A stretch of 64,000 bases of DNA from a virus (IMGVR_UViG_3300009695_000004:1-64000), one strand, 5' to 3'. Positions 8,199 through 58,937 are shown, numbered from the stretch's first letter. Notes: generated from the sequence alone by a model not told the origin. Made by a program: numbers and translations.

Positions 8199-9203
8199 TT
8201 AACCTGTCAAAATATCATCTAATTGTTGCTTCATTTTTTGTTTTTTAAATTCATAATATTGTTCAGGAGTATTATTACCATACTTATATATCAAATGAAA
8301 CTCTTTATGGATATCTTCTGATAAACATACTCCTAGTCCATATTTGTAATGCAATTTTAAGCATTCTTTATTTATCCTATGAATCTCCAACTCTGTATAA
8401 CAATTCATTTCACTATGTATAGGCAATACTAATTGGGCAATTGTTTCTTGCAATATATCACTAAACCCATAGAGATGATGTATGATGGTGCTATTTATTC
8501 CTGTAATATCACATTTATAATTATATTTTTTTAAACTATCTTGTTTCCAAACAGAGATTTTGGTTCTTAGATGTTCCGCAAGAGAACTTATACCACCTTT
8601 CCAATTGAAATTATTTTCTCCTTTATTTTCTAAATTAGCACATTTACTGCATCCATGCCCTCTGAATACACTATCCCATGTAGTTTCCCATTCATAATTA
8701 TCTATTTTACATTTGAATAAAAGCTTTTCTCTAGCATTTACATATCTTTTACTCAGTAGCTCTATATTTGGATTGATCTCTTTTAATTTTTGTTTAACTT
8801 CTTCGAGGCTCAATGTTATTGTATTCGCACAACTTGGGCATCCATGTCCACTTCTAAGATGGTCGTAAGTAGAAGACCATTTATATTCATCTTTCAAACA
8901 CTTACATAATAATTTATAATCAACTCCTTTATAAATAGTGTCCACTATTTCAATGTTGGGATTAATTTCAAACATATTTTCTTTAACTTGAGTAATATTA
9001 ATTTTGGGACGCCCTGCACATTTAGGACATCCTTTCCCTTTACTTAAATTAGAATAATTAGCATCCCATTCATATGCGTCTATCCTGCATTTACATTTTA
9101 ATTTTGTTGAGTTATTTATATATATTCCATTTAGAATTTCTATATTAGGACTGATAATCTCTATTCTTCTTTTGACTTCGTCTAATGTCAGTCTCTTTAA
9201 CAT
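8199..9203 (-). CDS. free-standing HNH-like homing endonuclease with three tandem Zn-ribbon modules
   Basis: Three repeats of about 70 aa end in GCPKCAG, GCPSCAN and GCSKCAN. C-terminal IHHLYGF...IHKEFH is HNH-like. The ATG at 9203 sits 2 nt after the helicase stop with AGGTG upstream; the track start is GTG 9212. Confidence 0.55.
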   Translation of the reverse strand: MLKRLTLDEVKRRIEIISPNIEILNGIYINNSTKLKCKCRIDAYEWDANYSNLSKGKGCPKCAGRPKINITQVKENMFEINPNIEIVDTIYKGVDYKLLCKCLKDEYKWSSTYDHLRSGHGCPSCANTITLSLEEVKQKLKEINPNIELLSKRYVNAREKLLFKCKIDNYEWETTWDSVFRGHGCSKCANLENKGENNFNWKGGISSLAEHLRTKISVWKQDSLKKYNYKCDITGINSTIIHHLYGFSDILQETIAQLVLPIHSEMNCYTELEIHRINKECLKLHYKYGLGVCLSEDIHKEFHLIYKYGNNTPEQYYEFKKQKMKQQLDDILTG

Positions 9204-9204
9204 T

Positions 9205-10767
9205 CTATACACCTATTCTAATTCTTTTTGGGTAACAGTACGCTACCTCAGAAAAAGTCCCAAGACTACCTATGAATTTATAGAGCATAGCAATTCCAGT
9301 ATCGTTTGAACTTGATCCATTTCTTGTCTTTTCAAAGAAAACAGTCCTGTATGTAGCATCTGTCTCTGGAGTGTAATCTTCTTTCACCCATTTATTTCCA
9401 ATAAGTTTTCTTTGAAATGGATGACAATAAAACTTTTTATTTCCAGAATCGAGTTCCTCAAGAAATGTTGGACGAATTAGAGTCAGGCTCTCTAAAATTT
9501 CTTTCACTTGTTTACTTTGAGAAATGACTGATGCATTTAAAAACAATACATTGTTTAATCCTTCTGCTAATTGAATGTTTGCTAATCCTATAAGATTATA
9601 TTTTTTACATAGAGTATCTAAAGTCCTTGAATCCTTTATAAGTCTAAGGTGATTATTATCTCCTGCTCCTATATCCAACTCACTTTTAAAAGTATCATAA
9701 GCTAGTACATCAAATCCTTCTGTGAGAGCATATTTCCTAACTTTTTTCTTTACTATAGAGATGTCAGCATCACAAATTTGTACGAACTTAAAACTTTTTG
9801 AAAACTTTTCATTCCATACTTTCTGTGCTTTTTTAATCATCTCTCTATCTTCAAGTGTCAATTCTCCTTTATTTTTTAACTTTTTCTTACTTACTTTATA
9901 GTATTTGAAGTATTTCACAAGAATAAGCATCAAGAATTGCATTTTAAATACACTAGACCTTTGTTCGTTTGAGATAATTATTATTTTTCTTCCTCTAAAT
10001 TGAAGTCCCATTAATATCGTGGTCATCATAGTTGTCTTACCCGAACTTGAAAATCCACCTAACATATTTAGTGATTGGGGCATGAGTCCTCCGATTTCAT
10101 TACTCATATAAGAAAACCCCTTCATATTCTCTCCATCTTCTGATTCTCCAAGTATATCAAAAGGAACTCCCGACTCCAATCCTTCTTGTAATCCCTCTAA
10201 ATATTCATCTGTTATCTCTAAATCTCCTTCTTCCAAGACCTTCGTACTATTACCTGTAGAAAACTCATTTATCCTTTGCATATACCACTCAACAACAGAT
10301 TCACTGTCCATTTTTCTAAACAATTTTAAAGGAATTATCTCTTTGCCATCACAATTAATTGGTTTTAATAAATTCATTCCTAAATCATAAAGCTTTAAGA
10401 TTACATTTTCTCTATCCAATACATCAAGATATGCTTCTGCGTTTTTATCATTCATAATATCAATAACGTCTTGAATTGATTGCCATCCGCCTCTTTGTTC
10501 ATATCCATTAGTTACAACTTCTCCACATTCTGAGAAAATTGTAACATCATCTATTACATTAAAATTCTTTTTACGAATATTATTAGCTATTTCAAAGTAG
10601 AATTTGCCATCTTGAGTAATAAAATCAGTTGATTTTAAATTAACTTCATCAAGAGTTAAAATATCTTTAAAAATTATTCCGACAATATTACCCTCGTGCA
10701 TTGCTCTGTTTTCTAATAATTCTTTTGGATATCTTTCTGTGACACCTGTGATAAATATATCATCCAA
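9205..10767 (-). CDS. dnaB: replicative DNA helicase (DnaB-like)
   Basis: Walker A GGFSSSGKTTMMT with a RecA-like C-terminal domain. TTG start with GAGGAGGG upstream. Confidence 0.8.
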   Translation of the reverse strand: MDDIFITGVTERYPKELLENRAMHEGNIVGIIFKDILTLDEVNLKSTDFITQDGKFYFEIANNIRKKNFNVIDDVTIFSECGEVVTNGYEQRGGWQSIQDVIDIMNDKNAEAYLDVLDRENVILKLYDLGMNLLKPINCDGKEIIPLKLFRKMDSESVVEWYMQRINEFSTGNSTKVLEEGDLEITDEYLEGLQEGLESGVPFDILGESEDGENMKGFSYMSNEIGGLMPQSLNMLGGFSSSGKTTMMTTILMGLQFRGRKIIIISNEQRSSVFKMQFLMLILVKYFKYYKVSKKKLKNKGELTLEDREMIKKAQKVWNEKFSKSFKFVQICDADISIVKKKVRKYALTEGFDVLAYDTFKSELDIGAGDNNHLRLIKDSRTLDTLCKKYNLIGLANIQLAEGLNNVLFLNASVISQSKQVKEILESLTLIRPTFLEELDSGNKKFYCHPFQRKLIGNKWVKEDYTPETDATYRTVFFEKTRNGSSSNDTGIAMLYKFIGSLGTFSEVAYCYPKRIRIGV

Positions 10768-13783: not shown

Positions 13784-13812
13784 ATTATACTATATTACTT
13801 TCGTATTGTCAA
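13784..13812 (-). promoter_or_regulatory. sigma-A consensus promoter with phage motif in spacer
   Basis: Sense strand is TTGACA, the 17-nt spacer ATACGAAAGTAATATAG, then TATAAT. Confidence 0.6.
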
Positions 13813-18134: not shown

Positions 18135-19091
18135 TTACTCCTTTCCTATCATAGAAATAAAATCTTCTTCAGATATAATTGGAACTCCTAAACTCTTAGC
18201 TTTCTGATTTTTGCTTGATGGAGAATTAACGTCATTATTTATAAGATATTCTTCAAATAAATATTTTTGTGGCGCAAATTCTCCAAAATATTTTATTTCC
18301 GCTTTTAATCTAGATGCAATAGCATTTTCCTTATTTTTAAAACTTCCTAAAGTGATACTTTTTTTATTATATTTTATTTGGGAAATCCATTTGTTTTTAA
18401 TATCACTCCAATACACCCCTGTTATTCCGCTTTTATTATTTTTAAATAGATTTCTATTCATGAGATTTTGTTGACGAGTTGATTTACGTAGATTTTCTTT
18501 TTTATTATTTAATGGGTTTTTATCTATGTGGTCTATTTGAAATTTAGTATTAGTATAATTATCAAGTCCTAAAATAACATAATGTAAACTTATAAATCTA
18601 CTACATTCATCAATGTATACCACATACCCATCTTCGTTTAAATGCCATTTATATTTTTTAATTTTATCAATGTCTTCTAAATCGGCTGTTGCCGAAGCTA
18701 TTTTATTAGAATATACATCACGTATAATTATTTCTATAAATTGTTCATTTTCAATGATTTCATTTTTATCATATTTAGTAATTTTTAATACACACTCAAA
18801 TTTATCAAATTGACCTCTATGTTTTGCACACAAATATGTATCTATCTTCTTTACATATGTTACTCTATTATCACCATCACATATATTACATAAGTGTTTA
18901 ACTTTATTGTAGTTATGACTTTTTAATTCTAATAATTTAGACGTTATTAAATGATTATTAATACTTTTTAAATTTCTTAAAATTGTATTTGAAGAACATT
19001 GATATTTTTTCGCTAAAGTTAAACTATTATGTTCAAAAGATAAAAAATCATCTTCCAATTTTTTCAAATCAATAATAATTTTTCTAGACAT
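18135..19091 (-). CDS. HNH (HNH_3) homing endonuclease with AP2 DNA-binding domain
   Basis: HNH motif QIDHIDKNPLNNKKENLRKSTRQQN. AP2 domain SGITGVYWSDIKNKWISQIKYNKKSITLGSF. Abuts the ligase gene. Confidence 0.75.
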   Translation of the reverse strand: MSRKIIIDLKKLEDDFLSFEHNSLTLAKKYQCSSNTILRNLKSINNHLITSKLLELKSHNYNKVKHLCNICDGDNRVTYVKKIDTYLCAKHRGQFDKFECVLKITKYDKNEIIENEQFIEIIIRDVYSNKIASATADLEDIDKIKKYKWHLNEDGYVVYIDECSRFISLHYVILGLDNYTNTKFQIDHIDKNPLNNKKENLRKSTRQQNLMNRNLFKNNKSGITGVYWSDIKNKWISQIKYNKKSITLGSFKNKENAIASRLKAEIKYFGEFAPQKYLFEEYLINNDVNSPSSKNQKAKSLGVPIISEEDFISMIGKE

Positions 19092-30133: not shown

Positions 30134-30171
30134 TTTATAACTCCTTCCAATAAATTAACATTTTTAATAGA

Positions 30172-30363
30172 TTATTTAACTTCAGCTTTTAAACAATCCT
30201 TACATCTTTCATAGGCGTGCATGTCAAAATCATAATTTAATACTTCTCCAAAAAATCTACATTGGCCATATCCGCTATTAAGCTTTTTACATGCTAAGAA
30301 ACAACTTGATCCACTACAATGGATATGTGTTGGATTTCCCTCCAATTCAATTATAAGTTTCAA
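30172..30363 (-). CDS. hypothetical Cys-rich protein (63 aa, TTG start)
   Basis: ORF track; AAGGAGG 7 nt upstream of the TTG. Confidence 0.5.
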   Translation of the reverse strand: MKLIIELEGNPTHIHCSGSSCFLACKKLNSGYGQCRFFGEVLNYDFDMHAYERCKDCLKAEVK

Positions 30364-30365
30364 AC

Positions 30366-30530
30366 CTATACCTCCTTATTCGCTATTAACCTTTCTTCCT
30401 CTTTTTCAAAGAACTCAATGATTTTTATTGATTTTTGAACTACTTCCTTTTCCATTCCTTTCGTTGTCCTTTTACCTTCTTGATTATAATAAGCATTAAG
30501 TAATTCTCCAATAACTTCACTTCTTTTCAT
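30366..30530 (-). CDS. hypothetical protein (54 aa), not in ORF track
   Basis: ATG at 30530 after AAAGGAGG. Reads MKRSEVIGELLNAYYNQEGKRTTKGMEKEVVQKSIKIIEFFEKEEERLIANKEV. Confidence 0.55.
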   Translation of the reverse strand: MKRSEVIGELLNAYYNQEGKRTTKGMEKEVVQKSIKIIEFFEKEEERLIANKEV

Positions 30531-30561
30531 TATAAACCTCCTTTCATATAAATTTCCTGTT

Positions 30562-30720
30562 TTATGCCCAATCTAAATGAACATATTCTTCTCCTATATA
30601 ATCCTTATCAATCTTTACATATGCTACTTCACAAGCACCAAAATCAAATTTCACTTTTAGTTCTCCAAGTCCTTCATCTTTAAGCTTTTGTAATTCTATT
30701 ATCAATTTATTTACATTCAT
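30562..30720 (-). CDS. hypothetical protein (52 aa), not in ORF track
   Basis: ATG at 30720 after GGGAGGAG. Reads MNVNKLIIELQKLKDEGLGELKVKFDFGACEVAYVKIDKDYIGEEYVHLDWA. Confidence 0.55.
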   Translation of the reverse strand: MNVNKLIIELQKLKDEGLGELKVKFDFGACEVAYVKIDKDYIGEEYVHLDWA

Positions 30721-30761
30721 ATATATCTCCTCCCATTTAAAATGAACTTTTTATATTATAT

Positions 30762-30911
30762 TTATCTCACAACCTCTAATCCTATAAACGCTAATAACTT
30801 ATCATACTTACCTTCAACAACACTTGCTCGACTTAAATTATATGCCGGATATATAGTTGTATCTACAAACCTAATCTCCAGAAATGTAAAGTCTAATTTA
30901 ATCTTTAACAT
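30762..30911 (-). CDS. hypothetical protein (49 aa), not in ORF track
   Basis: ATG at 30911 after AAGGAAAGGAAAG. Reads MLKIKLDFTFLEIRFVDTTIYPAYNLSRASVVEGKYDKLLAFIGLEVVR. Confidence 0.45.
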   Translation of the reverse strand: MLKIKLDFTFLEIRFVDTTIYPAYNLSRASVVEGKYDKLLAFIGLEVVR

Positions 30912-30985
30912 AATTCTTTCCTTTCCTTACTAAATTATTTATTAACCATTAAAATTTATCATTTATTTCTATATATTAAGTTTAT

Positions 30986-31007
30986 TATATTATATTAGGT
31001 TTGTCAA
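30986..31007 (-). promoter_or_regulatory. phage promoter-like motif with TTGACA
   Basis: Sense strand TTGACAAACCTAATATAATATA, nearly identical to the copy at 42786-42804. Confidence 0.5.
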
Positions 31008-31077
31008 TAGATTACAACAATTTCCATAGATATAATTATTGCAGCAAAGCTTTTATACTCTACTGCATTTCCTTCCA

Positions 31078-32016
31078 TTATATTACTCCATGCTTTATGT
31101 TTGCCAAGTTTTTGTACCAAACAAGTGATTGCTTACTTTTTAAATTAAATAATCCTAATATAGTTTCATCATCAAAATATTCACGATTTTCAGGTGTTAG
31201 CATATAAACTATTTTACTTCTTCTTATATCTTCCATTGTCAAATTATCCACGTCTATACCTTCACAACTAATATCGTTATTCTTAAAAATCTTATGCAAT
31301 GTATCTCCAGGATTATTTAGAAAATCTTCTTTCTTACCTTTTCCAACATTTACAGGCTTAACTAAATATTCAGAACTTCGATAGGACATCCTCTTATATA
31401 CATTATTTTTTGTGGTAACTACGTAATACATTTCTTTCATACATTTTCTAATATCCTCTACGATTTCAAAATCTTCAATTCTTACTATTCTTCTAGTATT
31501 CAAAAATAATATTGCAATATTTTCTCCTTCATCATTTTTGGAGAACTTAATCATATCATTTTTTAACATTTTGATTTCTTCATTTGTAAGACTCGACCAT
31601 GCTAATTCAAACATTAATTTATCTCTTACGTTCAACTCTTCTGCTCCGTCCATCTTAGATAACTGATTTTTAATATTCATATACTGGCTATAATTTAATG
31701 TAAGATTGAGAATTCCTTTAATATCTATAAGATTTTCCATGTTCAATTTTTCTGTATCAAAATTTTCAATATTACAATTCTCTTTTTCGCAAATATATTC
31801 TACAAATCTTCGTACAACAGATGCATATTTATTTAAACTCGATGGTGATATCGCTTTATAAGATTTTAAATAATTAGATATATCTTTTTGATTCCAATCC
31901 AATACAGACTTCTCAATTATTTTTTCAAATTTAATAACTTTATTCAATATAAATCCAATTTCTACTTCATCGTTAGAATCATTTAAAAAACTTTTTAAAT
32001 ATTTATTTGTTAACAT
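31078..32016 (-). CDS. tyrosine-recombinase-like protein with degenerate catalytic residues
   Basis: SAM-like N-terminus (DISNYLKSYKAISPSSLNKYASVVRRFVEYI). RDKLMFELAWSSLTNEEI resembles box I but lacks the catalytic Arg. TMEDIRRS replaces HxxR, and the C-terminus retains VWY. Confidence 0.4.
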   Translation of the reverse strand: MLTNKYLKSFLNDSNDEVEIGFILNKVIKFEKIIEKSVLDWNQKDISNYLKSYKAISPSSLNKYASVVRRFVEYICEKENCNIENFDTEKLNMENLIDIKGILNLTLNYSQYMNIKNQLSKMDGAEELNVRDKLMFELAWSSLTNEEIKMLKNDMIKFSKNDEGENIAILFLNTRRIVRIEDFEIVEDIRKCMKEMYYVVTTKNNVYKRMSYRSSEYLVKPVNVGKGKKEDFLNNPGDTLHKIFKNNDISCEGIDVDNLTMEDIRRSKIVYMLTPENREYFDDETILGLFNLKSKQSLVWYKNLANIKHGVI

Positions 32017-32633: not shown

Positions 32634-33527
32634 TTATGATATTATGCTATTCATTATACTATTATTTGCCTGTTTTATCATCTGTTTTTCATCTACTTGT
32701 ACGTATATTTGAGTTGTTGATAAACTTGCATGACCTAGAATTTCTTGAAGTGTTCTTAAATCCATCCCGTTCTGGAAGCTGTTTGTAGCGAATGAGTGTC
32801 TTAAGAGATGTACCAACATATCAGAATCACCTTGTGGATTAACACCGGATTTCTCCATTGCTATTCTTACCATGCTTTGAATTGATGTCTTATCCATCCT
32901 GGACTTCCTTTCACTTAAGAATAAAGCATTTTCACCTTTTACATTAGCTCTTACCTTCATATACTCTTGCAATAAGAAGTTTATTTGTTCACTCATATAC
33001 ATAGTACGTTCTTTATTACCCTTCCCTATTATTTGAGTGACTTCTTTACCTACTATGTCAATATTCAGATCAACAACCTCGCTCAATCTCATTCCAGTAT
33101 TAAGTATCAACAGTATTATTGTTTTGTCTCTTACAGCATTTCTGGGACTAACACTCTCCAATAACTTTTTGCATTGCTCGATGTTGAGATATTTTGCTTT
33201 TCTCTTTGGTATTTTAGGTTTGTCATCTTTGTCTAGTTCGAACATAACATTTTTATTAATCACCTTGATCTTTACTAAATAAGTGAAGAAGTTCGTCAAC
33301 GCACACAACTTCCTTCTTATAGCTGCTGCTGCATTGGTGTCCTTTAGATAGTACATGAAATTATATATGTGAGTTACTTGAATCTTTTTAGCATTAGTCT
33401 TATTAATTTCAAATTCCTTTTCCTTCATGTAATTACAGAACACACTTACATTGCTTTGATATCCCTTTACGCTTTCCTCACTTTTAGTAAGAGATAAGTA
33501 TTTTACATAATCTGTTATTAAATTCAT
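32634..33527 (-). CDS. tyrosine recombinase/integrase, XerC/XerD-like
   Basis: Complete catalytic signature: RDKTIILLILNTGMRLSEV, GKGNKERTMYM, VHLLRHSFAT and LGHASLSTTQIY. Confidence 0.85.
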   Translation of the reverse strand: MNLITDYVKYLSLTKSEESVKGYQSNVSVFCNYMKEKEFEINKTNAKKIQVTHIYNFMYYLKDTNAAAAIRRKLCALTNFFTYLVKIKVINKNVMFELDKDDKPKIPKRKAKYLNIEQCKKLLESVSPRNAVRDKTIILLILNTGMRLSEVVDLNIDIVGKEVTQIIGKGNKERTMYMSEQINFLLQEYMKVRANVKGENALFLSERKSRMDKTSIQSMVRIAMEKSGVNPQGDSDMLVHLLRHSFATNSFQNGMDLRTLQEILGHASLSTTQIYVQVDEKQMIKQANNSIMNSIIS

Positions 33528-42164: not shown

Positions 42165-42395
42165 CTATTTGTATAAGTTTATCCATACATAACATTCATT
42201 TTCTTCTATCCATTCAAAACTTGTATAGCATCCACAGTCTTGAACTTCATCAATTTTACATATATTGTCGCCCTCTGTCATCCAATTTAAAAAGTCTTCA
42301 TCATTAGTATTTTTTAATATTTTATTCCATTTCTTTGTAATAGTCTCTATTGATTTTCCTTTTATAGTAGCATCTAATTGTTTGTATAATTTCAT
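42165..42395 (-). CDS. hypothetical protein (76 aa), first gene of leftward arm
   Basis: ORF track, with the start moved to ATG 42395, 9 nt after AAAGGA. The track start is GTG 42413. Confidence 0.5.
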   Translation of the reverse strand: MKLYKQLDATIKGKSIETITKKWNKILKNTNDEDFLNWMTEGDNICKIDEVQDCGCYTSFEWIEENECYVWINLYK

Positions 42396-42785
42396 TTTCT
42401 TCATTCCTTTCACTGGTTTATTTCTTAGCTGATTATTATATTCTTATTTTAGAATTTAAAGAAGGGTAATTTTAGTAATGTCTCAGTTACCCTTCTTATT
42501 ATATTCTATTTGTTCACACCTTTTTATATCTATTATTTCCTTTACTGCTTATGCCAAACGGAATACTATTGAAGTGGTATTTGTTTTTAGTGCTCCAACC
42601 TACCTAATTTATAGTTGATATAAAAAGCTTTATTCAGTTTTCAAATAACTACTTTTAGCTATAAATCGTAGAGCCCATAAACTACGATATCACAGAATGT
42701 AGACACACATTACAGATAAGTGGAACTTTAAGGAGTTCAACCCATAAGGCACGATTTATTTACTAACCTTATGTATTTATTATAA
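42396..42785 (-). ncRNA. long structured 5' leader or stand-alone RNA ending in a strong hairpin
   Basis: Lies downstream of two tandem leftward promoter motifs. No ORF is present. Hairpins are ATCGTAG/CTACGAT, GAACT/AGTTC, and an 11-bp stem at 42459-42497. Confidence 0.35.
42459..42497. terminator. 11-bp perfect-stem hairpin (terminator/attenuator candidate)
   Basis: AAGAAGGGTAA (42459-42469) pairs with TTACCCTTCTT (42487-42497), 17-nt loop. The flanks are only moderately U-rich. Confidence 0.5.
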
Positions 42786-42804
42786 CATATTATATTAGGT
42801 TTGT
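42786..42804 (-). promoter_or_regulatory. phage promoter-like motif (leftward arm entry)
   Basis: Sense strand ACAAACCTAATATAATATG. Confidence 0.5.
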
Positions 42805-42815
42805 ATATAGTTTTA

Positions 42816-42834
42816 TATAATATATTTGATTTAT
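42816..42834 (-). promoter_or_regulatory. phage promoter-like motif (leftward arm entry, second copy)
   Basis: Sense strand ATAAATCAAATATATTATA. Confidence 0.45.
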
Positions 42835-42844
42835 AATTGTTAAC

Positions 42845-43310
42845 AATTTATGAACGTTATCAGGTAATTGATCCAATGTCGGAATTATTAGTTATGCATT
42901 AGAATTTCATTGAATGTATAAGTTATTGTATATCAATGTATAATTGTATGTGTTTATGCATAGAATTTTATAGAATGGTATGTTTAAAGGGTTTATGATA
43001 TCGATTGTGTTAAATATACATTAGTATACATTGATGAATGTATATAGCTGATTGTTTATGATATAGTTGAATTGTAGAATTTTATTAGATACGATAAATT
43101 GATATGCATTATTAGTTTATTGTATGGATATTATTGGGTATTGATTGTTAATATATATTAGTGATATAGTAGGAATTAAATCAGGGATATGAGGATATAA
43201 TCATATGACTTGTATATACATGTATAGAGTTGTATAGTGTTTCATATAGTACATTTTACTTTTGACACTAAAAAGTTTATAAGTGAATGATCATTCATTT
43301 TAGATATACA
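42845..43310. other. C-depleted (top strand) repeat-rich tract
   Basis: I counted 10 C in 42901-43200. Degenerate direct repeats are present, e.g. TTATGCATTAGAATTTCATTGAATG (42893) versus TTATGCATAGAATTTTATAGAATGG (42953). No ORFs. Confidence 0.7.
43284..43297. repeat. 14-bp perfect palindrome TGAATGATCATTCA
   Basis: Read directly from the sequence. Confidence 0.7.
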
Positions 43311-43320
43311 ATATTACTTT

Positions 43321-43352
43321 ACTAACTAAATAGTTTACTAACTAAATAGTTT
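43321..43352. repeat. perfect 16-bp tandem direct repeat ACTAACTAAATAGTTT x2
   Basis: Read directly: copies at 43321-43336 and 43337-43352. Confidence 0.85.
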
Positions 43353-43403
43353 GATTGTCAAAGTAATAATGTCATATTGATTATATCGTTATTGCCAGTA
43401 AAG

Positions 43404-43570
43404 TTATCCACAGGCTAATAAGTTATCCACATTTAATCCACAAGTATTTGTAGTTTGTTCATTAATTGTTCATTAGTTATCCACAGATATTGTATGGTTA
43501 TCCACAGTTTTATGTAAGTTATAAACAAGTTATCCACAGATTATATGACTTATCCACAGAGTTATCCACA
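43404..43570 (+). promoter_or_regulatory. DnaA-box cluster (7 perfect TTATCCACA plus 1 TAATCCACA, all same orientation)
   Basis: Perfect boxes at 43404-12, 43423-31, 43477-85, 43498-506, 43530-38, 43550-58 and 43562-70. The variant is at 43434-42. Confidence 0.85.
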
Positions 43571-43959
43571 GGTAAAATACTCATAAATGAAAAAATGCAT
43601 CTTGTATAATTGAACAAAGTAAACATTTTACTATCATATAGTTATTGAAACTACATTACGTAAATATCAATGTCATAATTACCCTGTCCACATATTCACC
43701 TACTAAACATAGATATTTTACCCTAAACACTAGATTAAACATATATTTCATTGAATGTTTTTAGTGAATATGACACAAATATAGTCATATCAACGTACTA
43801 CAGGGTATTAAAACAAGCCTATTTTGCAGCAAACTAGTGAATTAGCCATATAAATTACAAGGATCATAGACCAGGGGCGTGTATTACGTTCAGCCAGTTC
43901 CGGGGTTTTTGAAATTTGGGCGTGCCTCACTAACGTCATTACCCTATCAAAAAATCACT

Positions 43960-45000
43960 TCCGTAACAATAATTTAAACATTATTTTCATAAATCCATCC
44001 TCCAATTTAAACATATTTTATAAATTCAAAACCTCAAATTCCTACAAAAATTCCTCAAATCCTAACCTTCCATCGCAAATAATACGAATCTAACAATCAA
44101 TTTCCTTCCTCTTTCTTCCAATATCTCACAAATTCATCTCAACAAAATTCAATTCCGTTATCCCCTATCGTAAACACTATCGTATTACCTTCAAAATCCC
44201 TTCCCAAATCTCATCAAAACTCACATAATATCACCTAATATATCCCATATCTCACTCAATCTCATACAATTCTACCTCATTCTCATCTGATCTCATAACG
44301 GTCAATATACTAAAACAATCCCAAACCCTATCACGGGGAGTACATTTACTTCAGAAATTATATCTTCCATATATACCCTACTACCTTCTAAAATTCACTA
44401 CACTAAATTCTCTATCTCACAGCAACAAAATCATATCCTTTTCATTAAGTTTCACAACCAATACTATCATACCTATTCGCAACTTCTAATCAACCTATAC
44501 TAAAATAAGCCACTTTATTAGTACAATTTCATCACACTGCTATTGGAGGGGCATACACTTACATCTCAACTACAATTCTCCATACCCTACCTATACCTTC
44601 CTAAAAAACATCACATCTTCTATCCCCCCTACTCCAACTCAACAAAACAACACCAATTTCCTCTCAAATTTTCACTAACCCAATTCTACCTATTCCATAG
44701 AACTATTTAATCCTGCTCTAAATAACCTACTTTTTTAGGACAATTCTATATCCTGAACCTGTCTCTACTAATATACTACATTCGGCAGCAATAATAAATC
44801 TACATCCTAATATCCTCTGGACTATATCTAAATAACATAAAATTCTTCCTAACAAAATAACTCCATTCTCATACCCTACACTAAATCAATCAAAATCACC
44901 TCTAAAAACGATTCTACCTCCTAGCCATACAAATATACTCCTAACCCTACTTTCGTTTAACCTTGCTCTAAATATAGCTACGTTTATAAGGATATTCTTT
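43960..45000. other. G-depleted (top strand) tract of degenerate 200-250-bp repeats
   Basis: I counted roughly 45 G in about 1040 nt, with abundant C. Several 60-nt lines have no G at all. Recurrent units include CTCTAAATAACCTACTTTTTTAGGACAATTC (44716) versus CTCTAAATATAGCTACGTTTATAAGGATATTC (44966), and ATACCCTAC at 44375, 44583 and 44870. No ORFs. Confidence 0.8.
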
Positions 45001-45022
45001 ACTAGAAATATATTTTACTATT

Positions 45023-45041
45023 ACAATCAGAATATAATATA
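45023..45041 (+). promoter_or_regulatory. phage promoter-like motif (rightward arm entry)
   Basis: ACAATCAGAATATAATATA. Confidence 0.5.
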
Positions 45042-45057
45042 TATTTATGAATACCTA

Positions 45058-45086
45058 TTGACAATACGAATATAATATAATATACT
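45058..45086 (+). promoter_or_regulatory. sigma-A consensus promoter with phage motif in spacer
   Basis: TTGACA, the 17-nt spacer ATACGAATATAATATAA, then TATACT. A roughly 190-nt leader runs to the rep ATG. Confidence 0.6.
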
Positions 45087-45282
45087 TATGAGTGATATAG
45101 AAAATACATTACAGAACATAGCAGAGAAAGGCGAACGCCGTCTGAGTGTTGCAAGAATAACATTACTATACATAAGAAAGGAGGAAACTAATAAGAAAAC
45201 AAAAACATTACGCTCACGACTTCAGGCGTGAAAAGAGTTACTTCAGTAACGATACTATTAGAACAACAGAAAGGAGGATCAT

Positions 45283-45726
45283 ATGAAGAAAGAACCAATA
45301 GAACATAAACCTACTCTAAAGGAAATACTACTTGACGATAGTAATGGATTCATACCACTACCAAGACAATTAATTACCATCCTAGGATTCAATGCAACAG
45401 GCTTACTAGTAGAACTATATGATAGATATGATTACTATAGTTCACAGCAATCACTAAATACCTATGGAGAATTTTTCTATACAGTCAATGATATTGAAAT
45501 CAATACAGGACTATCGAGGAGAGAACAAACCACATCTATCAAAATACTAAAGGAATACAATTTCATAGAAAGAATTATATCACGCGATATGCCACCAAAA
45601 AGATATTTCCTCATGAATAGTAATATCACACACCTCCTAAAGAATATCTATAAGAAAGCAGAAGAGAAGAAATCTAACATCATCGAAAGAAACAAAACTG
45701 AAATAGAACGAATGTTAGGAACATAA
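45283..45726 (+). CDS. winged-helix replication initiator-like protein (RepA_N/DnaD-like)
   Basis: IPLPRQLITILGFNATGLLVELYDRYDYYS...FYTVNDIEINTGLSRREQTTSIKILKEYNFIERI resembles RepA_N initiators of Firmicutes plasmids. GAAAGGAGG RBS. Iterons and palindromes lie immediately downstream. Confidence 0.45.
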   Translation: MKKEPIEHKPTLKEILLDDSNGFIPLPRQLITILGFNATGLLVELYDRYDYYSSQQSLNTYGEFFYTVNDIEINTGLSRREQTTSIKILKEYNFIERIISRDMPPKRYFLMNSNITHLLKNIYKKAEEKKSNIIERNKTEIERMLGT

Positions 45727-48205: not shown

Positions 48206-48348
48206 AGGATGATTTTGAGGGATATTGGTGTGAATATGAGTTGGCTGAGGATATCAATTTTTATGAAAAAGAATATATGGAAACGATGAGGGATTATATT
48301 GAATTTTATGAGTTGCAAAGTTGGGAAGAAATGCTGGTTCGGAATTAG
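48187..48348 (+). CDS. hypothetical acidic protein (53 aa), not in ORF track
   Basis: ATG at 48187. Reads MRRQKLKDDFEGYWCEYELAEDINFYEKEYMETMRDYIEFYELQSWEEMLVRN. Ends 3 nt before the promoter motif at 48352. Confidence 0.45.
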   Translation: MRRQKLKDDFEGYWCEYELAEDINFYEKEYMETMRDYIEFYELQSWEEMLVRN

Positions 48349-48351
48349 GCG

Positions 48352-48370
48352 ACAAATCGAATATAATATA
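48352..48370 (+). promoter_or_regulatory. phage promoter-like motif
   Basis: ACAAATCGAATATAATATA, 21 nt before the TTG at 48392. Confidence 0.55.
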
Positions 48371-48391
48371 TACAGAGGAGGAATAGTATAT

Positions 48392-49120
48392 TTGGAGGAA
48401 AGATATGGTGTAATATATAAAATTACAAATATCCTTAATGACAAAGTTTATATAGGACAAACAATTAAGAGAGGCGGATTTGACTCTAGATATCATGGAA
48501 GCGTCGAGAAGACACACAACTCTCACCTAAGAAGGTCTATAGAAAAATATGGCAAAGAAAATTTTGAAATAGATAAAGAATTATACATAGCTTATTCTAA
48601 AGATGAACTCAACAATAAAGAGTTAGAATTTATAAAATTATATAAAAGTAATGATTATAATTATGGATATAACATAAAAGTTGGAGGAGACAACATAGGC
48701 AAAATTGAAGGTAAAAATAGAGCTGATATATTATTAAGACAAGGGAGCTGCATTATATGTAGGACTACCTATGAGATATTTTTATCCTTTACGGATGCGA
48801 GTGAAAAATATAATATAGGAACTGAACAAATAAGGAAACAATGCAATGGGCTCACTAATTTTAGAAAAGAAACTTTTTATAACAAAGAACTTAATACGTT
48901 TTTAGAATTCGAATATTATGATCATGTCAAAAAGGGAATTAGAAAACCAGTCATTTGTTGTAATACTAAGGAAATATTTAAAAATTGCAAATGTATTTCT
49001 GAAAAATATGATTTCATAATTAGAGAAAGTCTTAGGAGTGCATTATATCGTAGTCAAAAATATGAAAAGAATGGACTTGAATTTATGTATTTATATCATT
49101 GGGTGATTGAAAACTATTAG
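48392..49120 (+). CDS. GIY-YIG homing endonuclease
   Basis: N-terminal YGVIYKITNILNDKVYIGQT...R...YGKENF...E is GIY-YIG. The TTG at 48392 lies 9 nt after GGAGGA. The track N-terminal extension from 48299 overlaps the promoter motif and another ORF. Confidence 0.75.
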   Translation: MEERYGVIYKITNILNDKVYIGQTIKRGGFDSRYHGSVEKTHNSHLRRSIEKYGKENFEIDKELYIAYSKDELNNKELEFIKLYKSNDYNYGYNIKVGGDNIGKIEGKNRADILLRQGSCIICRTTYEIFLSFTDASEKYNIGTEQIRKQCNGLTNFRKETFYNKELNTFLEFEYYDHVKKGIRKPVICCNTKEIFKNCKCISEKYDFIIRESLRSALYRSQKYEKNGLEFMYLYHWVIENY

Positions 49121-49164: not shown

Positions 49165-51786
49165 TTGAATAAGCAAATTCATATATATAGTGTAGATACT
49201 AGTGCGTTTTATAACGAAGCCGAAATGATAATCCATAGAAGATTAAGCAAATTGTATTCCTATAAAAAAGAGTTGATTCGCAAACGAGATAAATTTAAAG
49301 TTGTATTTGTTAATGAAAAATGGAAAATAAATATAAAAAAGCGTATCAGACAGTCTAGTTTGGCAATTAAAAATACAAAGCAAGGTTTATATGTAAAATT
49401 TGGAGAAAATATTGGTATAAGAAATCTCAATGAAAAATCTTTAAATAAATATAATATAATTTCAATGTTCGACTCCAGTTTAACTAGATTAATGAAAATA
49501 CCAATAAATACTATTACAGAAGATATTATAGTTGTTCAAACATATTTCTTTGAAGTTATAAAAGATATTATTATAAATGGGTTTACCTCTAAAGGAGAAA
49601 GATATGTTTGCTTCACCGCTAGTGCAGGACAAATAAGAACAAAGAAAACTGTATTCATAAAAGAAAAAGTTCTGAAAGAACATATAAATGCTATTACCTG
49701 TGGACTGAGCCTAGAAGAGATAAACAGGCATGGAGGAGTTAATGTAAATAAATACTTAGCATACTTAGCCTTATGCAATTCAGCTACAGATGAATGGGAA
49801 GGATTTGATATAACTAAAACAATAGTTGTAGAAGATATGGATACCGAAGTTCCTGGAATTGTAGATTTTATTGATGATAAGACTTATGAAATTAAAAGAA
49901 CTCCTATGGAGATACCTATTTCACATACAGATGGGTGTGGGGTTATGTTGCCTAGCAAATATAAGAAGTCAAGAATGGCTAGACTACCCTGGATTAAAGG
50001 ACTTTTAGTCCCTATGCCCTTTGATAAGTTTATTCGTGAAAAATCTAAGGAAACAGGAGTATATTGTGGGATAATACAAGATATTTATGGAAAAGAACAT
50101 GATATTCTAAAAGAAAAAATTGAAGTTATATTTACCAGAAGTCAATTTAAGATGGCGAAGTATTATGATTCGTGGGAACAATATAAAGAGAACTTTATTA
50201 AATTTGGTTGTCAATCATGTAAATGTAATGAGGAAGAAGATATTTTCAGTGAGGCTAAATTGAATTACCAGATGCTACAAACCTTAATAGATATGGAGGT
50301 TCATGAATTAAAGCCTGTTATTAAAAAAACTAAATACAATATCATAAATATTGGCAAAGATAGAAAAACAATGTTGAAGGTGTTGGGTGTTGTGGCATCT
50401 AATATAAATAAGAACTATATTCAACAAGCATTAGAGATATATCCTGAATTATTGAATGATACCTATAGTAAAGAAATATTAAAACAAGTTAAAAAGAGTT
50501 TAGTTAAAGAAGGAAGATCTGGTAAATTAGATTTAGGCAAAAACGGAATATATACTTTTATCATTCCAGATTTATATGCTTTCTGTGAATATCTATTTCT
50601 TGGAATTAAAAATCCGGAAGGAATACTTAAGAGTACAGATGTTTATTGCAGTCTTTATAAAGATTCTCCTAAGTTGGACTGTCTAAGATCTCCTCATTTA
50701 TTTTTAGAGCACGCAGTTAGAAACAATGTTATAGACAAAGAGAAAGATAGATGGTTTATTACAAGTGGACTATATACAAGCTGTCACGATATGATCAGTA
50801 AAGTGTTAATGTTTGACAATGATGGTGATAAATCCCTATTATGTGCAGACACTACTATAATTACAGTTGCTGAAAGGAATATGAAAGATATTGTTCCCTT
50901 GTATTATAATATGGCTAAAGCTCCTGCGAAAGAAATAAACAACGAGGTTATATATGAAGGATTAAAGGCAGCATATACGGGAGGTAACATAGGTTTATAT
51001 AGTAATAATATAACAAAGATATGGAATAGCGAGAATATTAACCTTGAAGCAGTAAAATTATTATGTATGGAAAATAACTTTACAATTGATTATGCTAAGA
51101 CATTGTACAAGCCTAAAAGACCATCTGATAAACAGGAGTTAATTACTAATTATACCAAATCTAAAGTTCCAAGATTCTTCATTTACGCAAAAGATAAAGA
51201 AAAGGATAAAGTTGAAAAGGCCAATAATAGTACAGTAAATAAATTACTAAAAATGATTCCAAACCCTAATATTAATTTTAAGAATATGAAGTTGGGTGAA
51301 TTTGATTTTAAAATGTTAATGAAGAATAATGATGTTGAATTAGATGAAGTTATTATTAAAAAATATACGAAATTGGATTTAAAGAAACATTTTATGTTGA
51401 GTTCACATGATGAAGAATCTAATAATATGTGTTATTTATATCAGGATATTAAAAATCAAATATTAGAAGTTAATAGTGATATTAATTATGTAACAGATGT
51501 GTTGGTTAGGTATTTATATGAAGAAAAAAAATCTAGTTTCAAAACTACTTTATGGGAATGTTTTGGAGATATTATGGTTAAAAATTTAAAAAGGAATATT
51601 CCTAATGGTTTTGAAGATGGGTATATGTTGTGTGAAATATGTGGGGATAGAATTGAAGATAGTTGCAGCACTAAAAAATATTGTGAAAAATGTGCCAAAG
51701 AACAATGGAAAGAGCAAGTTAAACTAAATATGAGAGAATATCGTAAGAGAATCGTTATAAAACGAACCGAGTCTGTTAACCCTTGA
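49165..51786 (+). CDS. YonO-like single-subunit two-barrel RNA polymerase (RdRP/beta-prime-like DxDGD motif)
   Basis: MFDNDGDKS (D-N-D-G-D at 50815-50829) matches the universal Mg-binding DxDGD/NADFDGD motif. FTASAGQIRTKKTVF (49612-) resembles the SQLR-type motif of the RdRP/YonO family. At 873 aa it is similar in size to SPbeta YonO. C-terminal Zn ribbon CEICGD...CEKC. Confidence 0.6.
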   Translation: MNKQIHIYSVDTSAFYNEAEMIIHRRLSKLYSYKKELIRKRDKFKVVFVNEKWKINIKKRIRQSSLAIKNTKQGLYVKFGENIGIRNLNEKSLNKYNIISMFDSSLTRLMKIPINTITEDIIVVQTYFFEVIKDIIINGFTSKGERYVCFTASAGQIRTKKTVFIKEKVLKEHINAITCGLSLEEINRHGGVNVNKYLAYLALCNSATDEWEGFDITKTIVVEDMDTEVPGIVDFIDDKTYEIKRTPMEIPISHTDGCGVMLPSKYKKSRMARLPWIKGLLVPMPFDKFIREKSKETGVYCGIIQDIYGKEHDILKEKIEVIFTRSQFKMAKYYDSWEQYKENFIKFGCQSCKCNEEEDIFSEAKLNYQMLQTLIDMEVHELKPVIKKTKYNIINIGKDRKTMLKVLGVVASNINKNYIQQALEIYPELLNDTYSKEILKQVKKSLVKEGRSGKLDLGKNGIYTFIIPDLYAFCEYLFLGIKNPEGILKSTDVYCSLYKDSPKLDCLRSPHLFLEHAVRNNVIDKEKDRWFITSGLYTSCHDMISKVLMFDNDGDKSLLCADTTIITVAERNMKDIVPLYYNMAKAPAKEINNEVIYEGLKAAYTGGNIGLYSNNITKIWNSENINLEAVKLLCMENNFTIDYAKTLYKPKRPSDKQELITNYTKSKVPRFFIYAKDKEKDKVEKANNSTVNKLLKMIPNPNINFKNMKLGEFDFKMLMKNNDVELDEVIIKKYTKLDLKKHFMLSSHDEESNNMCYLYQDIKNQILEVNSDINYVTDVLVRYLYEEKKSSFKTTLWECFGDIMVKNLKRNIPNGFEDGYMLCEICGDRIEDSCSTKKYCEKCAKEQWKEQVKLNMREYRKRIVIKRTESVNP

Positions 51787-53524: not shown

Positions 53525-53636
53525 AGGGCGATGTTGCGAAACAGCAGTAAGACCTTATAATAGAGAATATAATAATGTCGAGATGACACAATTCAATGTT
53601 CTCCTTTTATTAATCAAATTTAAAAGGAGGATTTTT

Positions 53637-54299
53637 ATGGAAGAAACTAAATTATTATTGAAAAAATCTGGGCGATTATGGGTTAATGAATATTATAATA
53701 AAGAAGATTATATTTTATTAAAAATGTTCAGAAAAGATTTAACAGAATCTTATGATGTATTAATTGATAAATGTGATTTTGAAAAGGTTTCACAATGTCA
53801 ATGGTATGGATTTATGAATAGGAAAAATTCACACTTAAAGAATATAATACAAATTTTATGGATGGTAGAAATAGAAGGTAAAAGAATTGTATATAACATA
53901 TATCAATGGATATTAGATACAAAATATAAAGATATAATGATTGATCATAAAAATACAAATAGGTTGGATAATAGGAGAAATAATTTAAGAATGTCTAATC
54001 CTGTTGAGAACGCTATAAATCAAACATATAACGGCTATAACTATGATAAAAAAACTAAAAGATATTTGTCTAGGATTAAATGTTTTGATAAACAGGTTAA
54101 TATAGGTAGATATGATACTGAATTGGAAGCCGAAATAATATATTTAAAAGCAAATATATTACTAGGATATGATAAAATCTCACAATATCATAACGATAGG
54201 ATTAATGAACTAGGTATAAATTTAACAGAGGAAGATTATAAAAATAAATACATAACCAAACTTATAAATTTAAAAAATTTATCAACAAATCAAATATAA
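53637..54299 (+). CDS. HNH (HNH_3) homing endonuclease with AP2 domain
   Basis: MIDHKNTNRLDNRRNNLRMSN (HNH) and GYNYDKKTKRYLSRIKCFDKQVNIGRYDT (AP2). The ATG at 53637 follows AAAGGAGGA. The track start is 53583. Confidence 0.75.
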   Translation: MEETKLLLKKSGRLWVNEYYNKEDYILLKMFRKDLTESYDVLIDKCDFEKVSQCQWYGFMNRKNSHLKNIIQILWMVEIEGKRIVYNIYQWILDTKYKDIMIDHKNTNRLDNRRNNLRMSNPVENAINQTYNGYNYDKKTKRYLSRIKCFDKQVNIGRYDTELEAEIIYLKANILLGYDKISQYHNDRINELGINLTEEDYKNKYITKLINLKNLSTNQI

Positions 54300-57247: not shown

Positions 57248-58517
57248 AAAATTTAAGAGGTAGTTTAGGCATATATTTATATGTTTATCTACAGCCTTCC
57301 ATGATTGCAAGTGGAAGTTTATAATAGTGCGAAAACACTTTAAATATGGAGATAGCAGAAGCAGTCTCCTTCTGTACCTAGAGACAATAAATACATAGGT
57401 TAGTAGGCTTGGTTAGAGTCTCAGAACTAATCTGCTTCTATGGGTGTTAGTGTAACGATAGCACACCTTCAAAGGATACGTAGAACACGTTTGACTCGTG
57501 TACATCCTAATAATATTATTTTAAAAGAAGATTTTCTCATAGAGCGTGAGAAATTAAAAATAAAGAAAGCTCAATTATAAGATTTAGTTGTAGAACGCAA
57601 CTAAGTAAAAATAAAGAAAGTTCAATAGAAGAATGTTTTATAGCAGACGTAAGGTCAAACAAAAGACTGTTGAGGATCGGAAATGTTCCCGACACGCTAT
57701 CTATATTGATAGTTAACAGGTATGTAGGAAGTGCAGCCCTACCAACAGTCTAATTCTATGTAAGCTATATACCTATTCGCACCTAGAAGCCTGTGCGAGG
57801 ACGATGATAAGGGGAAACATCTAAAACCCTATAGCAAAAAATCTATAATACTAGGCAATATAGGTTTAATCTTATTTATATTACAAGGTGTATCCAGCCT
57901 TCGAAAATGGAAACTTTAAATTCATGCCATACACCAAGGGGCTTTGTACCTTGGCTATTTAGTCCGATAAGGACAAAAGTTGCACGAGTAATGACGATAG
58001 TTAACAAAGTGTAATGAAGGTAATACAACAGTTCGGAGATTACCTTTGAGACGGGAACTCCTTAAAAACGCCTAGGGAATCGCAGCGCAAATAGGAAAGG
58101 TCTAAAGTGTTTTGCGATAAACATACACTTATAGATTTATCTCACTTCTTTAAATAACAGTTCTCTCAAGCCTCTGTTTATAATGCTATTATAATTAAGC
58201 GTAACAATGAGAGCCAGAAATTTATATTTTGATAGCGACATAAATCATGTGGTTTATGTGGTTTAGGAGGAGGATTATTTTCTAATATTAACTTAAAGTT
58301 AGTGTATCTGTTGAGATACTAGCCTTTGTTACTTTATGCGATAAATTAAAGTAAATAGTATGTCGCTACTCGATATGCGACTAATAAAAGGTCGAGTTCA
58401 AATGTTGTAATCTATGGAGAGTCCCTACCATATAGTGGGAAACTTTAAACTCAAGTTCTTTAAATTTAGTTATAAATTCTTTATATATGAAGACTTTCGT
58501 ACTATTGTTAAAGAACT

Positions 58518-58862: not shown

Positions 58863-58937
58863 GCTGATATGACTCAACGGTAGAGTAGCACACTTGTAAT
58901 GTGCAAGTTGTAGGTTCAAATCCTATTGTCAGCTCCA
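58863..58937 (+). tRNA. trnT: tRNA-Thr (anticodon UGU) with encoded CCA
   Basis: Folded manually. Acceptor GCTGATA/TGTCAGC (one G-U), D stem ACTC/GAGT, anticodon stem GCACA/TGTGC, loop CTTGTAA, T stem GTAGG/CCTAT, T loop TTCAAAT, discriminator T, then CCA. Confidence 0.9.

Follow-up and report, generated by a model that had tools for sequence, protein, structure and literature searches.

What kind of element is a phage intergenic region that, on one and the same strand, is nearly devoid of C in its left part and of G in its right part? The question is raised by positions 42414-45282 of IMGVR_UViG_3300009695_000004:1-64000, a stretch of 64,000 nt of viral DNA that was analyzed as a whole and is called the window below. 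The source phage has a genome of ~122 kb with 29% G+C and is kin of Bacillus phage SPβ and of Clostridium botulinum phages. A sequence-only reading of the region had centered its composition on a cluster of DnaA boxes that lies between the two tracts, that is, on an origin of replication. The present analysis points elsewhere. Because the same mirror pattern surrounds the mapped packaging start or genome ends in relatives, the tracts most likely belong to a genome-end region, and they are probably the polar flanks of an SPβ-like packaging-start/terminus module. Taken as a whole, with the packaging-start (pac)/terminus flanks and a way for them to work, this is the best explanation that we can offer, and we give it a little less than an even chance of being right.

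Two tracts of opposite strand composition

On the + strand, 42901-43200 is made up of A104 C10 G58 T128, and 43960-45000 of A370 C293 G46 T332 (GC skew, -0.73), with no G in six of the 60-nt lines of the right tract. The base counts and G-less lines of the sequence-only reading were thus reproduced, and its description of mirror polarity, lack of open reading frames (ORFs), degenerate repeats, and a place between divergent promoters proved correct; no ORF of at least 60 amino acids exists between 42414 and 45282. With fitted borders, the left tract, which is C-poor and G/T-rich on the + strand, non-coding, and weakly repetitive, extends from 42845 to 43225 (A130 C19 G71 T161; skew, +0.58), the G-poor, C-enriched right tract extends on the + strand from 43940 to 45000 (A379 C299 G46 T337; skew, -0.73), and the 714 nt that separate them are balanced in composition. 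The right tract, with 28% C, 4.4% G, and a C/G ratio of 6.4 over 1 kb, is the lowest-G kilobase of the window: the runner-up among 1041-nt intervals outside the region has 68 G versus 46, the four longest G-free runs (148, 111, 106, and 89 nt) all lie inside the tract, and 46 or fewer G in 1041 nt have a binomial probability of 5e-20 given the G frequency of the window as a whole. The corresponding probability for the left tract (10 or fewer C in 300 nt, window-wide background) is 7e-13, but coding stretches of the right arm go down to 11-12 C per 300 nt, and the left tract is therefore notable for being non-coding and for a sign opposite to that of its arm rather than for magnitude. In sign, the skew of each tract is the reverse of what its gene arm shows. 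The feature is genuine and goes beyond ordinary skew. It is accompanied by a predicted lack of structure, as the minimum free energy (MFE) is ~0 for most 120-nt segments of the right tract + strand, and the left tract - strand is nearly unstructured by prediction (MFE of -2 to -6 per 120 nt).

An origin of the tracts from decayed genes was rejected because there are no ORFs in them and their skew is beyond that of coding DNA. The other ORF-poor, C-rich stretch, 30134-31077, holds small genes with ribosome-binding sites. Two roles that had been suggested for the tracts concern their composition as such. The exclusion of every palindromic site that contains a G:C pair holds arithmetically but is not specific, and a role in DNA synthesis that needs no deoxyguanosine triphosphate found no support, given that 1 kb of such DNA would not rescue a genome of 122 kb.

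Strand polarity at the packaging starts of relatives

Restriction mapping and PhageTerm have placed the genome opening and the packaging start of SPβ-like phages in the interval between yonR and yonP (bioRxiv 10.1101/2021.11.22.469490), a "pac-site" region is recognized in SPβ, phi3T, and Goe11-14 (Fink & Zahler 1982; Kohm et al., bioRxiv 10.1101/2021.11.22.469490), and phage Perkons has 264-bp short direct terminal repeats, which were determined by PhageTerm from reads (PMC13245101; MT325768). By position, the yonR-yonP gap of SPβ corresponds to the window gap at 42414-45282, which separates the - and + arms where the yonO arm begins, and the Perkons terminal repeats fall in the equivalent gap. 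The published 251-bp pac fragment of SPβ maps exactly to 9074-9324 of the SPβ locus (L025), where 8860-9073 and 9325-9665 are its flanks.

Around these sites the mirror skew recurs. In the sense of yonO, the C-poor flank, the block, and the G-poor flank have skews of +0.42 (G46/C19), 0.01, and -0.58 (G25/C94) in SPβ; +0.84 (G67/C6), 0.00, and -0.54 in relative L021; +0.77, 0.03, and -0.47 in L024; and +0.33, 0.02 (275 nt), and -0.72 (305 nt) in L013, whose YonO is 61% identical. In Perkons the 264-bp terminal repeat is flanked by skews of +0.63 (G103/C23 over 450 nt) and -0.39 to -0.51 (G15/C46 over 300 nt), and the values for the window phage are +0.58, about -0.1, and -0.73. Phage c-st has the same polarity, weakly. 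The left flanks of L021 and L024 cannot be aligned to that of SPβ over ~170 nt, yet they are more C-poor. The G-poor strands of the window, Perkons, and the locus L162, which is described below, are alike (G 4-5%, C 25-28%). The accessible portions of the SPβ and Perkons reports (bioRxiv 10.1101/2021.11.22.469490; PMC13245101) contain no mention of flank strand skew.

The sequence-only reading had named absence of the skew from relatives as one observation that would refute it; the outcome favors a real feature, since mirror skew is present in SPβ, L021, L024, L013, and Perkons. In these relatives, however, the pattern centers on the packaging block or terminal repeat and is accompanied by 0-4 DnaA boxes, so that the frame of DnaA boxes and an origin is probably wrong. 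The balanced central block of the window, 43571-43939 (unit U0; + strand; G53/C64; skew, -0.09), which ends in a G-rich head motif at 43875-43894, is a candidate counterpart of the 251-bp pac block of SPβ and the 264-bp repeat of Perkons. Judged by sequence comparison, the conserved layout in the sense of yonO would consist of a C-poor flank, one or more DnaA-type boxes, a balanced block of ~250-370 bp, a G-poor flank, and the early promoter of the yonO arm, and we propose that the balanced block is the place where the packaged genome begins and ends. The conserved trait would be polarity rather than sequence. In either flank, the strand whose 3' end meets the block is rich in G and poor in C, its partner with the 5' end at the block is poor in G, and this is how a telomere is polarized. 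In the window phage, the right flank would have grown to 1.06 kb via degenerate tandem duplication of a unit of ~210 nt that includes the G-rich head motif, and the DnaA boxes would have multiplied to eight.

Such polarity might also arise as a functionless footprint if the 3'-ending strands remained single-stranded for long near the ends and were deaminated (C to T and A to G). The polarity does fit a 3'-ending strand that is exposed in single-stranded form, the G-rich strands of the window contain more T than A, and the three-letter make-up with G at 4-5% resembles that of neutral sites of mitochondrial DNA, in which the vertebrate H strand deaminates likewise. The tracts are, however, enriched in C (28-34%) and at least equal to the neighboring DNA in G+C content, SPβ and L013 have the opposite A/T asymmetry, conserved sequence blocks occur inside the tract, and the tract boundaries are sharp at the block edge. 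Pure deamination is made highly improbable by the enrichment in C, the inconsistent A/T asymmetry between phages, and the conserved blocks.

A short sequence motif also links the window to the pac blocks. The pattern GGGGN{4,9}TTACATCT, for which only SPβ and L013 were used, occurs once in the window (0.01 expected), at 44548(+) inside the right tract, and in a set of 246 loci its matches are limited to phages of the SPβ type and to copies of the window phage. The window contains the motif in the form GGGG..TA.A.TTTACATCT, with weaker copies at 43875 and 44335. In the blocks of SPβ (GGGGGTATATTTACATCTAA) and L013 (GGGGGGATATTTTACATCTAA) the motif lies ~50 nt before the G-poor tract, and the G islands of the window (GGGGCATACACTTACATCTC, GGGGAGTACATTTACTTCAG, and GGGGCGTGTATTACGTTCAG) align with it (alignment A3); the G-poor tract of the window begins ~50 nt past the GGGGCGTGTATTACGTTCAG motif of the block, as in SPβ. 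A block ..CTACTTT.TTA.GA.A.T is also common to the aligned sequences (A3), and L013 has two head motifs 255 nt apart. The sequence ATCTGTT in the SPβ block was considered as a T7 RNA polymerase pause signal and was rejected because it is not conserved in phi3T.

The right tract is built of five to six degenerate direct units of ~210-290 nt each, close to the approximately five units of 200-250 bp with recurring blocks that had been described from the sequence, while the "about 60-bp units" on the left came down to weak repetition. TACCCTA anchors the right-hand units, with five of its six copies in the window located in this tract and each of the five on the + strand; the units also have CTCTAAATA..TTAGGACAATTC blocks and G islands in common (unit alignment A1), and nearly all G of the tract is confined to islands at 43875, 44335, and 44545, the head-motif copies being at 44335-44354 and 44548-44566. 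These repeats could suggest that the flanks are binding arrays for the small terminase or an accessory protein, like pacL/pacR of SPP1 and cosB/cosQ of lambda, and that the skew is a by-product of binding motifs that are asymmetric and oriented. The flanks adjoin the mapped pac block of SPβ, each unit has conserved blocks (TACCCTA, CTCTAAATA..TTAGGACAATTC, and the head motif), the last unit is ~80% conserved in a relative whose neighboring protein is 72% identical, AA/TT shows a weak periodicity of 11-12 nt, and the short-repeat arrays of T7 adjoin its terminal repeat. Nevertheless, G is absent from the poorly conserved parts of the units too (mean column identity of the unit alignment, 46%), the left flanks of L021 and L024 keep their composition despite diverged sequence, the two window tracts have no oligomer in common, iteron or Chi-like, beyond composition, and packaging in one direction does not predict mirror polarity. 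We regard this explanation as quite unlikely.

DnaA boxes, transcription, and a possible fate of the ends

The eight co-oriented DnaA boxes of the window occupy 43404-43570 on the + strand (seven perfect TTATCCACA and one with one mismatch; repeat families D1-D5), next to an A+T-rich spacer at 43226-43403. The spacer contains a 16-nt tandem repeat at 43318-43352 (TTTACTAACTAAATAG x2.2, 100% match) and an imperfect palindrome (inverted repeat I3 at 43308-43372), and is a candidate unwinding or operator region. DnaA-like boxes occur in the relatives as well: AGTGGATAA lies 13 nt from the pac block of SPβ (L025 9052-9060), TGTGGATAG lies 4 nt from the terminal repeat of Perkons (L237, record 136535-136543), and four boxes stand beside the block in L013 (3321-3362). 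The 1-4 boxes of the relatives are on the same side of the pac block as in the window. Because they adjoin the block in SPβ and the repeat in Perkons, DnaA boxes seem to be a regular part of the module, which hints that host DnaA might bind next to genome ends in this phage group.

If the cluster marked a bidirectional origin, the G-free strands would be lagging-strand templates of the two outgoing forks that offer the 5'-to-3' replicative helicase structure-free tracks rich in primase sites, and the C-free strands would be unprimable by primases of the CTA/CCC type. Eight perfect or near-perfect boxes in one orientation with an A+T-rich spacer alongside, a DnaD/O-like gene that adjoins, the cumulative GC-skew minimum of the window at this place, and DnaA boxes inside 2-kb repeat-rich non-coding gaps of L162 and lactococcal phiL47 are all in line with an origin. 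Firmicute and clostridial primases start at CTA, TTA, or CCC (PMC5204125), and no trinucleotide of the G-free strand is more strongly enriched than CTA (52 versus 33.9 expected), which is enriched in seven of seven comparable tracts; CTA and CCC together number 69 on the G-free strand versus 9 on the other. TTA sites, however, are common on the C-free strands (40 and 23), and the phage has its own primase-like gene, whose product may differ in specificity. The arm-wide skew is confounded with gene orientation, no trinucleotide (DnaA-trio) array was seen by eye beside the window boxes, and boxes and tracts are not conserved in L030, L038, and L034, which share the replication-like protein of 147 amino acids encoded next to the gap. 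In SPβ, L021, L024, and Perkons, which have at most a single imperfect box, the same skew is present and is centered on the packaging block. An origin as the source of the skew is unlikely in our judgment.

A rule that phage DnaA-box clusters have mirror-skewed flanks was rejected, since L162 alone has them among ~48 IMG/VR phage loci with at least four boxes; phiL47 has only weak skew in its repeat-rich 2.2-kb gap. L162 (IMGVR_UViG_3300038312_000142; 31% G+C), whose proteins are unrelated, has a 2.1-kb non-coding gap between divergent arms, with a C-poor left flank (G123/C23) and a G-poor tandem repeat on the right. The 16-nt tandem repeat of L162 (10171-10303) contains six perfect GCTGGTGG (Escherichia coli-type Chi) and two GNTGGTGG, all on one strand, directly beside a nine-box DnaA cluster and nowhere else in the 11.3-kb locus, and their orientation is the one active for a nuclease that enters from the center. 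By its matching orientation, this Chi array points to DNA-end metabolism as a probable activity at such sites.

A role at the RNA level would depend on transcription of the tracts. The promoters that bracket the gap are a leftward early promoter region at 42770-42834 (- strand; TATACA-17-TATAAT at 42807-42779), of which 42770-42820 is an inverted copy of the right-hand one at 45022-45084 (inverted repeats I1, I2, and I5), and tandem rightward early promoters at 45023-45086 (+ strand; TTGACA-17-TATACT, 11 of 12 matches, at 45058-45086; direct repeat D7), beyond which the gene for the 147-aa protein (45283-45726, + strand) is the first sizeable one of the right arm. Near-identical strong promoters of the form TTGACAA.C.AATATAATATAATA head several operons, at 45058-45082(+), 30983-31007(-), 13788-13812(-), and 42779-42807(-), and it is the two copies bracketing the gap that form the inverted repeat. 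Outward G-free transcripts might serve as Rho-loading (rut) sites or insulators, or inward G-rich ones as R-loop primers as in ColE1, T4 oriF, and mitochondria. RNA of high C/G ratio without structure is the textbook definition of rut, and the right tract, if transcribed rightward, has that composition (C-rich, G-poor, unstructured, at least ~80 nt), given its C/G ratio and MFE; a G-rich non-template strand favors R-loops. Promoter-like sites directed outward are found at 43361-43332(-) and 43610-43637(+), and one directed inward at 45064-45036(-). Across the region, however, promoter-like sites are at the level of chance (23 found versus 23.8 expected), the inward candidate is not conserved in the relative L036, the G-rich strand is only 28% G, no Rfam family matches even at E<=1, and the bracketing of the packaging block in five other phages would be left unexplained. 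We hold an RNA role of this kind to be very unlikely. Structured RNA in the region was rejected as well, as searches of 42300-45400 with Rfam covariance models gave no match, either at gathering thresholds or at E<=1, and folding z-scores of the central region are unremarkable. A likeness to T7/T3-type promoters (ACCCT.CACTAAA) was judged coincidental because the motif is restricted to the tract and the window showed no gene for a T7-like RNA polymerase. An ORF of 11 codons, MKIMFKLLLRK (43960-43995, -), has a perfect GGAGG ribosome-binding site at 8-nt spacing; it lies at the inner end of the right tract, directed at the DnaA boxes, and may well be of chance origin.

We therefore return to the packaging-start/terminus module and to how its flanks might work, for which only a tentative and rather doubtful scheme can be offered. 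A genome end, or a break in the block, would be resected 5' to 3', which could happen after injection, in the tail of a rolling circle, or where concatemer units join. Once resection had stripped the G-free strand, its C-free, G-rich complement would be exposed as a 3' tail, which could form no G:C hairpins and could not pair with the tail of the other end. On this tail a RecA-type recombinase might load, and its filament, extending 5' to 3' across the terminal block, would drive annealing or invasion of the block, leading to circularization, concatemers, or starts of recombination-dependent replication. The adjacent DnaA boxes could recruit the helicase-loading pathway of the host. The enzymes invoked for the resection and recombinase steps are the exonuclease and the Sak4/RecA-like protein encoded by the phage.

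Several observations weigh against the packaging-start/terminus module or this scheme. The scheme leans on the preference of RecA for G/T-rich DNA, and although the G-rich strand of the window has more T than A, those of SPβ and L013 do not. The absence of a G-rich oligomer common to both tracts means that there is no Chi-like array. The window boxes (TTATCCACA on the yonO-sense strand) are oriented opposite to those of SPβ and L013. The best copy of the head motif lies within the tract (44548) instead of heading the block. In the window, an nhmmer profile built from the tracts of SPβ, L021, L024, and L013 gave a best E value of 2.4 (44161-44186), and homology thus rests on position, composition, layout, and one short motif. 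Assemblies of the window phage are circularly permuted with respect to one another and show no ends. L030 and L038, in which the 147-aa protein is 68% identical, have no such module at this junction, so that the site is not fixed in the wider group. Finally, the authors of the SPβ study read their data as pac and headful packaging and leave the sharp 250-bp block unexplained (bioRxiv 10.1101/2021.11.22.469490).

A broader and more speculative proposal is that SPβ-like and related Firmicute phages share a "bacteriophage telomere-like" design, in which polarity would be selected whatever the sequence, resected ends would be recombinase-loading tails, and DnaA would couple end joining or invasion to helicase loading, so that terminus and replication start would form one module. 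We think it unlikely that the proposal holds in this generality.

The phage, its relatives, and comparable systems

The window keeps the gene order of SPβ, with yonO at 49165, a yonJ-like exonuclease gene at 54545, terminase at 59963, portal at 61752, and, as in SPβ, a Clp protease gene between exonuclease and terminase. The YonO-type single-chain RNA polymerase (49165-51786) is 61% identical to that of phage D-1873 and 51-52% identical to that of SPβ. The left arm encodes a PolC-like polymerase, a DnaB-like helicase, a DnaG-like primase, an NAD ligase, two tyrosine recombinases, and a Sak4-type AAA_24 protein (E 8e-15); the exonuclease matches phrog_284 (E 2e-70). The 147-aa protein weakly resembles DnaD-like helicase loaders and O-like initiators (phrog_186, 9e-6; phrog_428, 3e-5; phrog_9773, 1e-3), has no match in Pfam, NCBIfam, or the PDB, and has just eleven relatives among 5.8 billion proteins; a search of viral and genome contigs with it gave nothing. 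Homologs of a 76-aa protein of the left flank are found in unrelated phages.

Four metagenome contigs carry the same phage and are 100% identical over the region, which leaves no variation to exploit. In L036, where the 147-aa protein is 72% identical, the last 110 nt of the tract are ~80% conserved (alignment A2), as is the rightward promoter, whereas the intergenic region of L030, L038, and L034, with proteins of 68-69% identity, is short and devoid of both DnaA boxes and tracts. The tract end being kept in the former and everything being absent from the latter, the whole module appears to be gained or lost as a unit. Near-identity search of the phage collection and distant search of the plasmid collection gave no close DNA relatives, matches in a distant search of the phage collection were limited to the DnaA boxes of lactococcal 949-group phages, and a conserved 19-mer, TTTAAYCYTGCTCTAAATA, had chance matches only in viral, metagenome, and genome collections, except for L071 (the L037 contig). 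Database records gave no information on termini, that of BUCT083 being circular and those of Enterocloster phages lacking terminus annotation. All contigs of the 72% relative (L036 1-110, L037/L071) break off within the G-poor tract, L029, a contig of the window's phage, starts at 43581, 11 nt past the last DnaA box, and L028 starts at 42499. These contig ends could reflect assembly breaks at repeats or a real coverage edge.

Some features elsewhere in the window and in related phages are recorded here. Homing endonuclease genes are found directly upstream of yonO (GIY-YIG, 48299-49120) and after a beta-CASP gene (HNH, 53583-54299); another HNH gene (18135-19091) abuts the NAD-dependent ligase gene, and the C-terminal end of its product also matches a ligase family. 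In several SPβ-like phages, the yonO match is split in two pieces. The tyrosine recombinase genes lie at 31078-32016 (-) and 32634-33527 (-). As for partition genes, the 68% relative has one of ParM/ALP type (L030 3135-4007) and D-1873 has TubZ, and none was recognized in the window; recombinases and the partition genes of relatives are compatible with a plasmid-prophage lifestyle in the group. Two tandem 6A RNAs and a skipping-rope RNA (Rfam; 57529-57750 and 58863-58937), followed by tRNA-Thr, occupy a 1.8-kb ORF-free gap ahead of the terminase and portal genes. The matching place is taken by a DUF3800-VIII RNA just upstream of yonK in SPβ (L025 14381-14446) and by a drum RNA in D-1873 (L001 20650-20757), and YonO reportedly initiates late transcription in SPβ at "an unannotated non-coding RNA" upstream of yonK. 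Differing predicted structured RNA motifs thus occupy the head of the YonO-dependent late operon.

The sub-terminal or pac region of SPβ-like phages is of a known kind, and, relative to the accessible portions of the literature cited above, the conserved polarity of composition is its new aspect. The packaging start of SPβ is mapped, and the polarity spans phages of Bacillus, Psychrobacillus, and the Clostridium type, including cases of diverged sequence. The genetics of SPβ could address how Firmicute phages with short terminal repeats or pac sites protect, join, and replicate their ends, and a role of host DnaA at phage genome ends becomes testable in that phage. Mirror skew is also a possible marker for termini in metagenomic phage contigs of this group, and the G-poor tract itself seems to be a point at which short-read assemblies break.

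Among systems already known, rut sites have the composition that a transcript of the G-free sequence would have. The G-rich strand of the window is oriented as Chi read from the center, and a true array is found there in L162; known Chi sequences are absent from the window, where TGAGAT (eight copies) and TAGGGT (six copies) occur in the right tract only. In P1 oriR with incC/incA, RK2 oriV, and oriC, a DnaA-box cluster, an A+T-rich stretch, and direct repeats lead up to the initiator promoter. The window has the same order of elements, up to the promoter of a putative initiator gene, but its degenerate units are ~210 bp in contrast to iterons of 17-22 bp, no common short iteron was found, and the skew also exists in relatives almost without boxes. 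Phage T7 has degenerate short direct repeats immediately inside its terminal repeat, which we take to be the arrays called SRL and SRR, reportedly described by Dunn and Studier in 1983, and its left-end + strand is rich in C and poor in G (C71/G28 over 161-400). T7 differs from the window in that its right-end array has the same orientation, without mirror polarity, its units are 7-8 bp instead of ~210 bp, and phage family and polymerase are unrelated. Perkons is closer, being a YonO phage with a gap upstream of the yonO arm, the same polarity, and nearly the same base make-up, although its termini are determined from reads where those of the window are inferred, its imperfect DnaA-like boxes are single, and its tracts are shorter. 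SPβ differs from the window in degree, with flanks of 0.2-0.35 kb versus 0.38 and 1.06 kb, one head-motif copy versus three, and one imperfect DnaA-like box versus eight. What the two phages have in common is a non-coding gap at the start of the yonO arm from which the arms diverge, a balanced block that a G-poor tract adjoins towards yonO and a C-poor tract on the other side, the GGGG..TTACATCT head motif, and a DnaA-like box next to the block.

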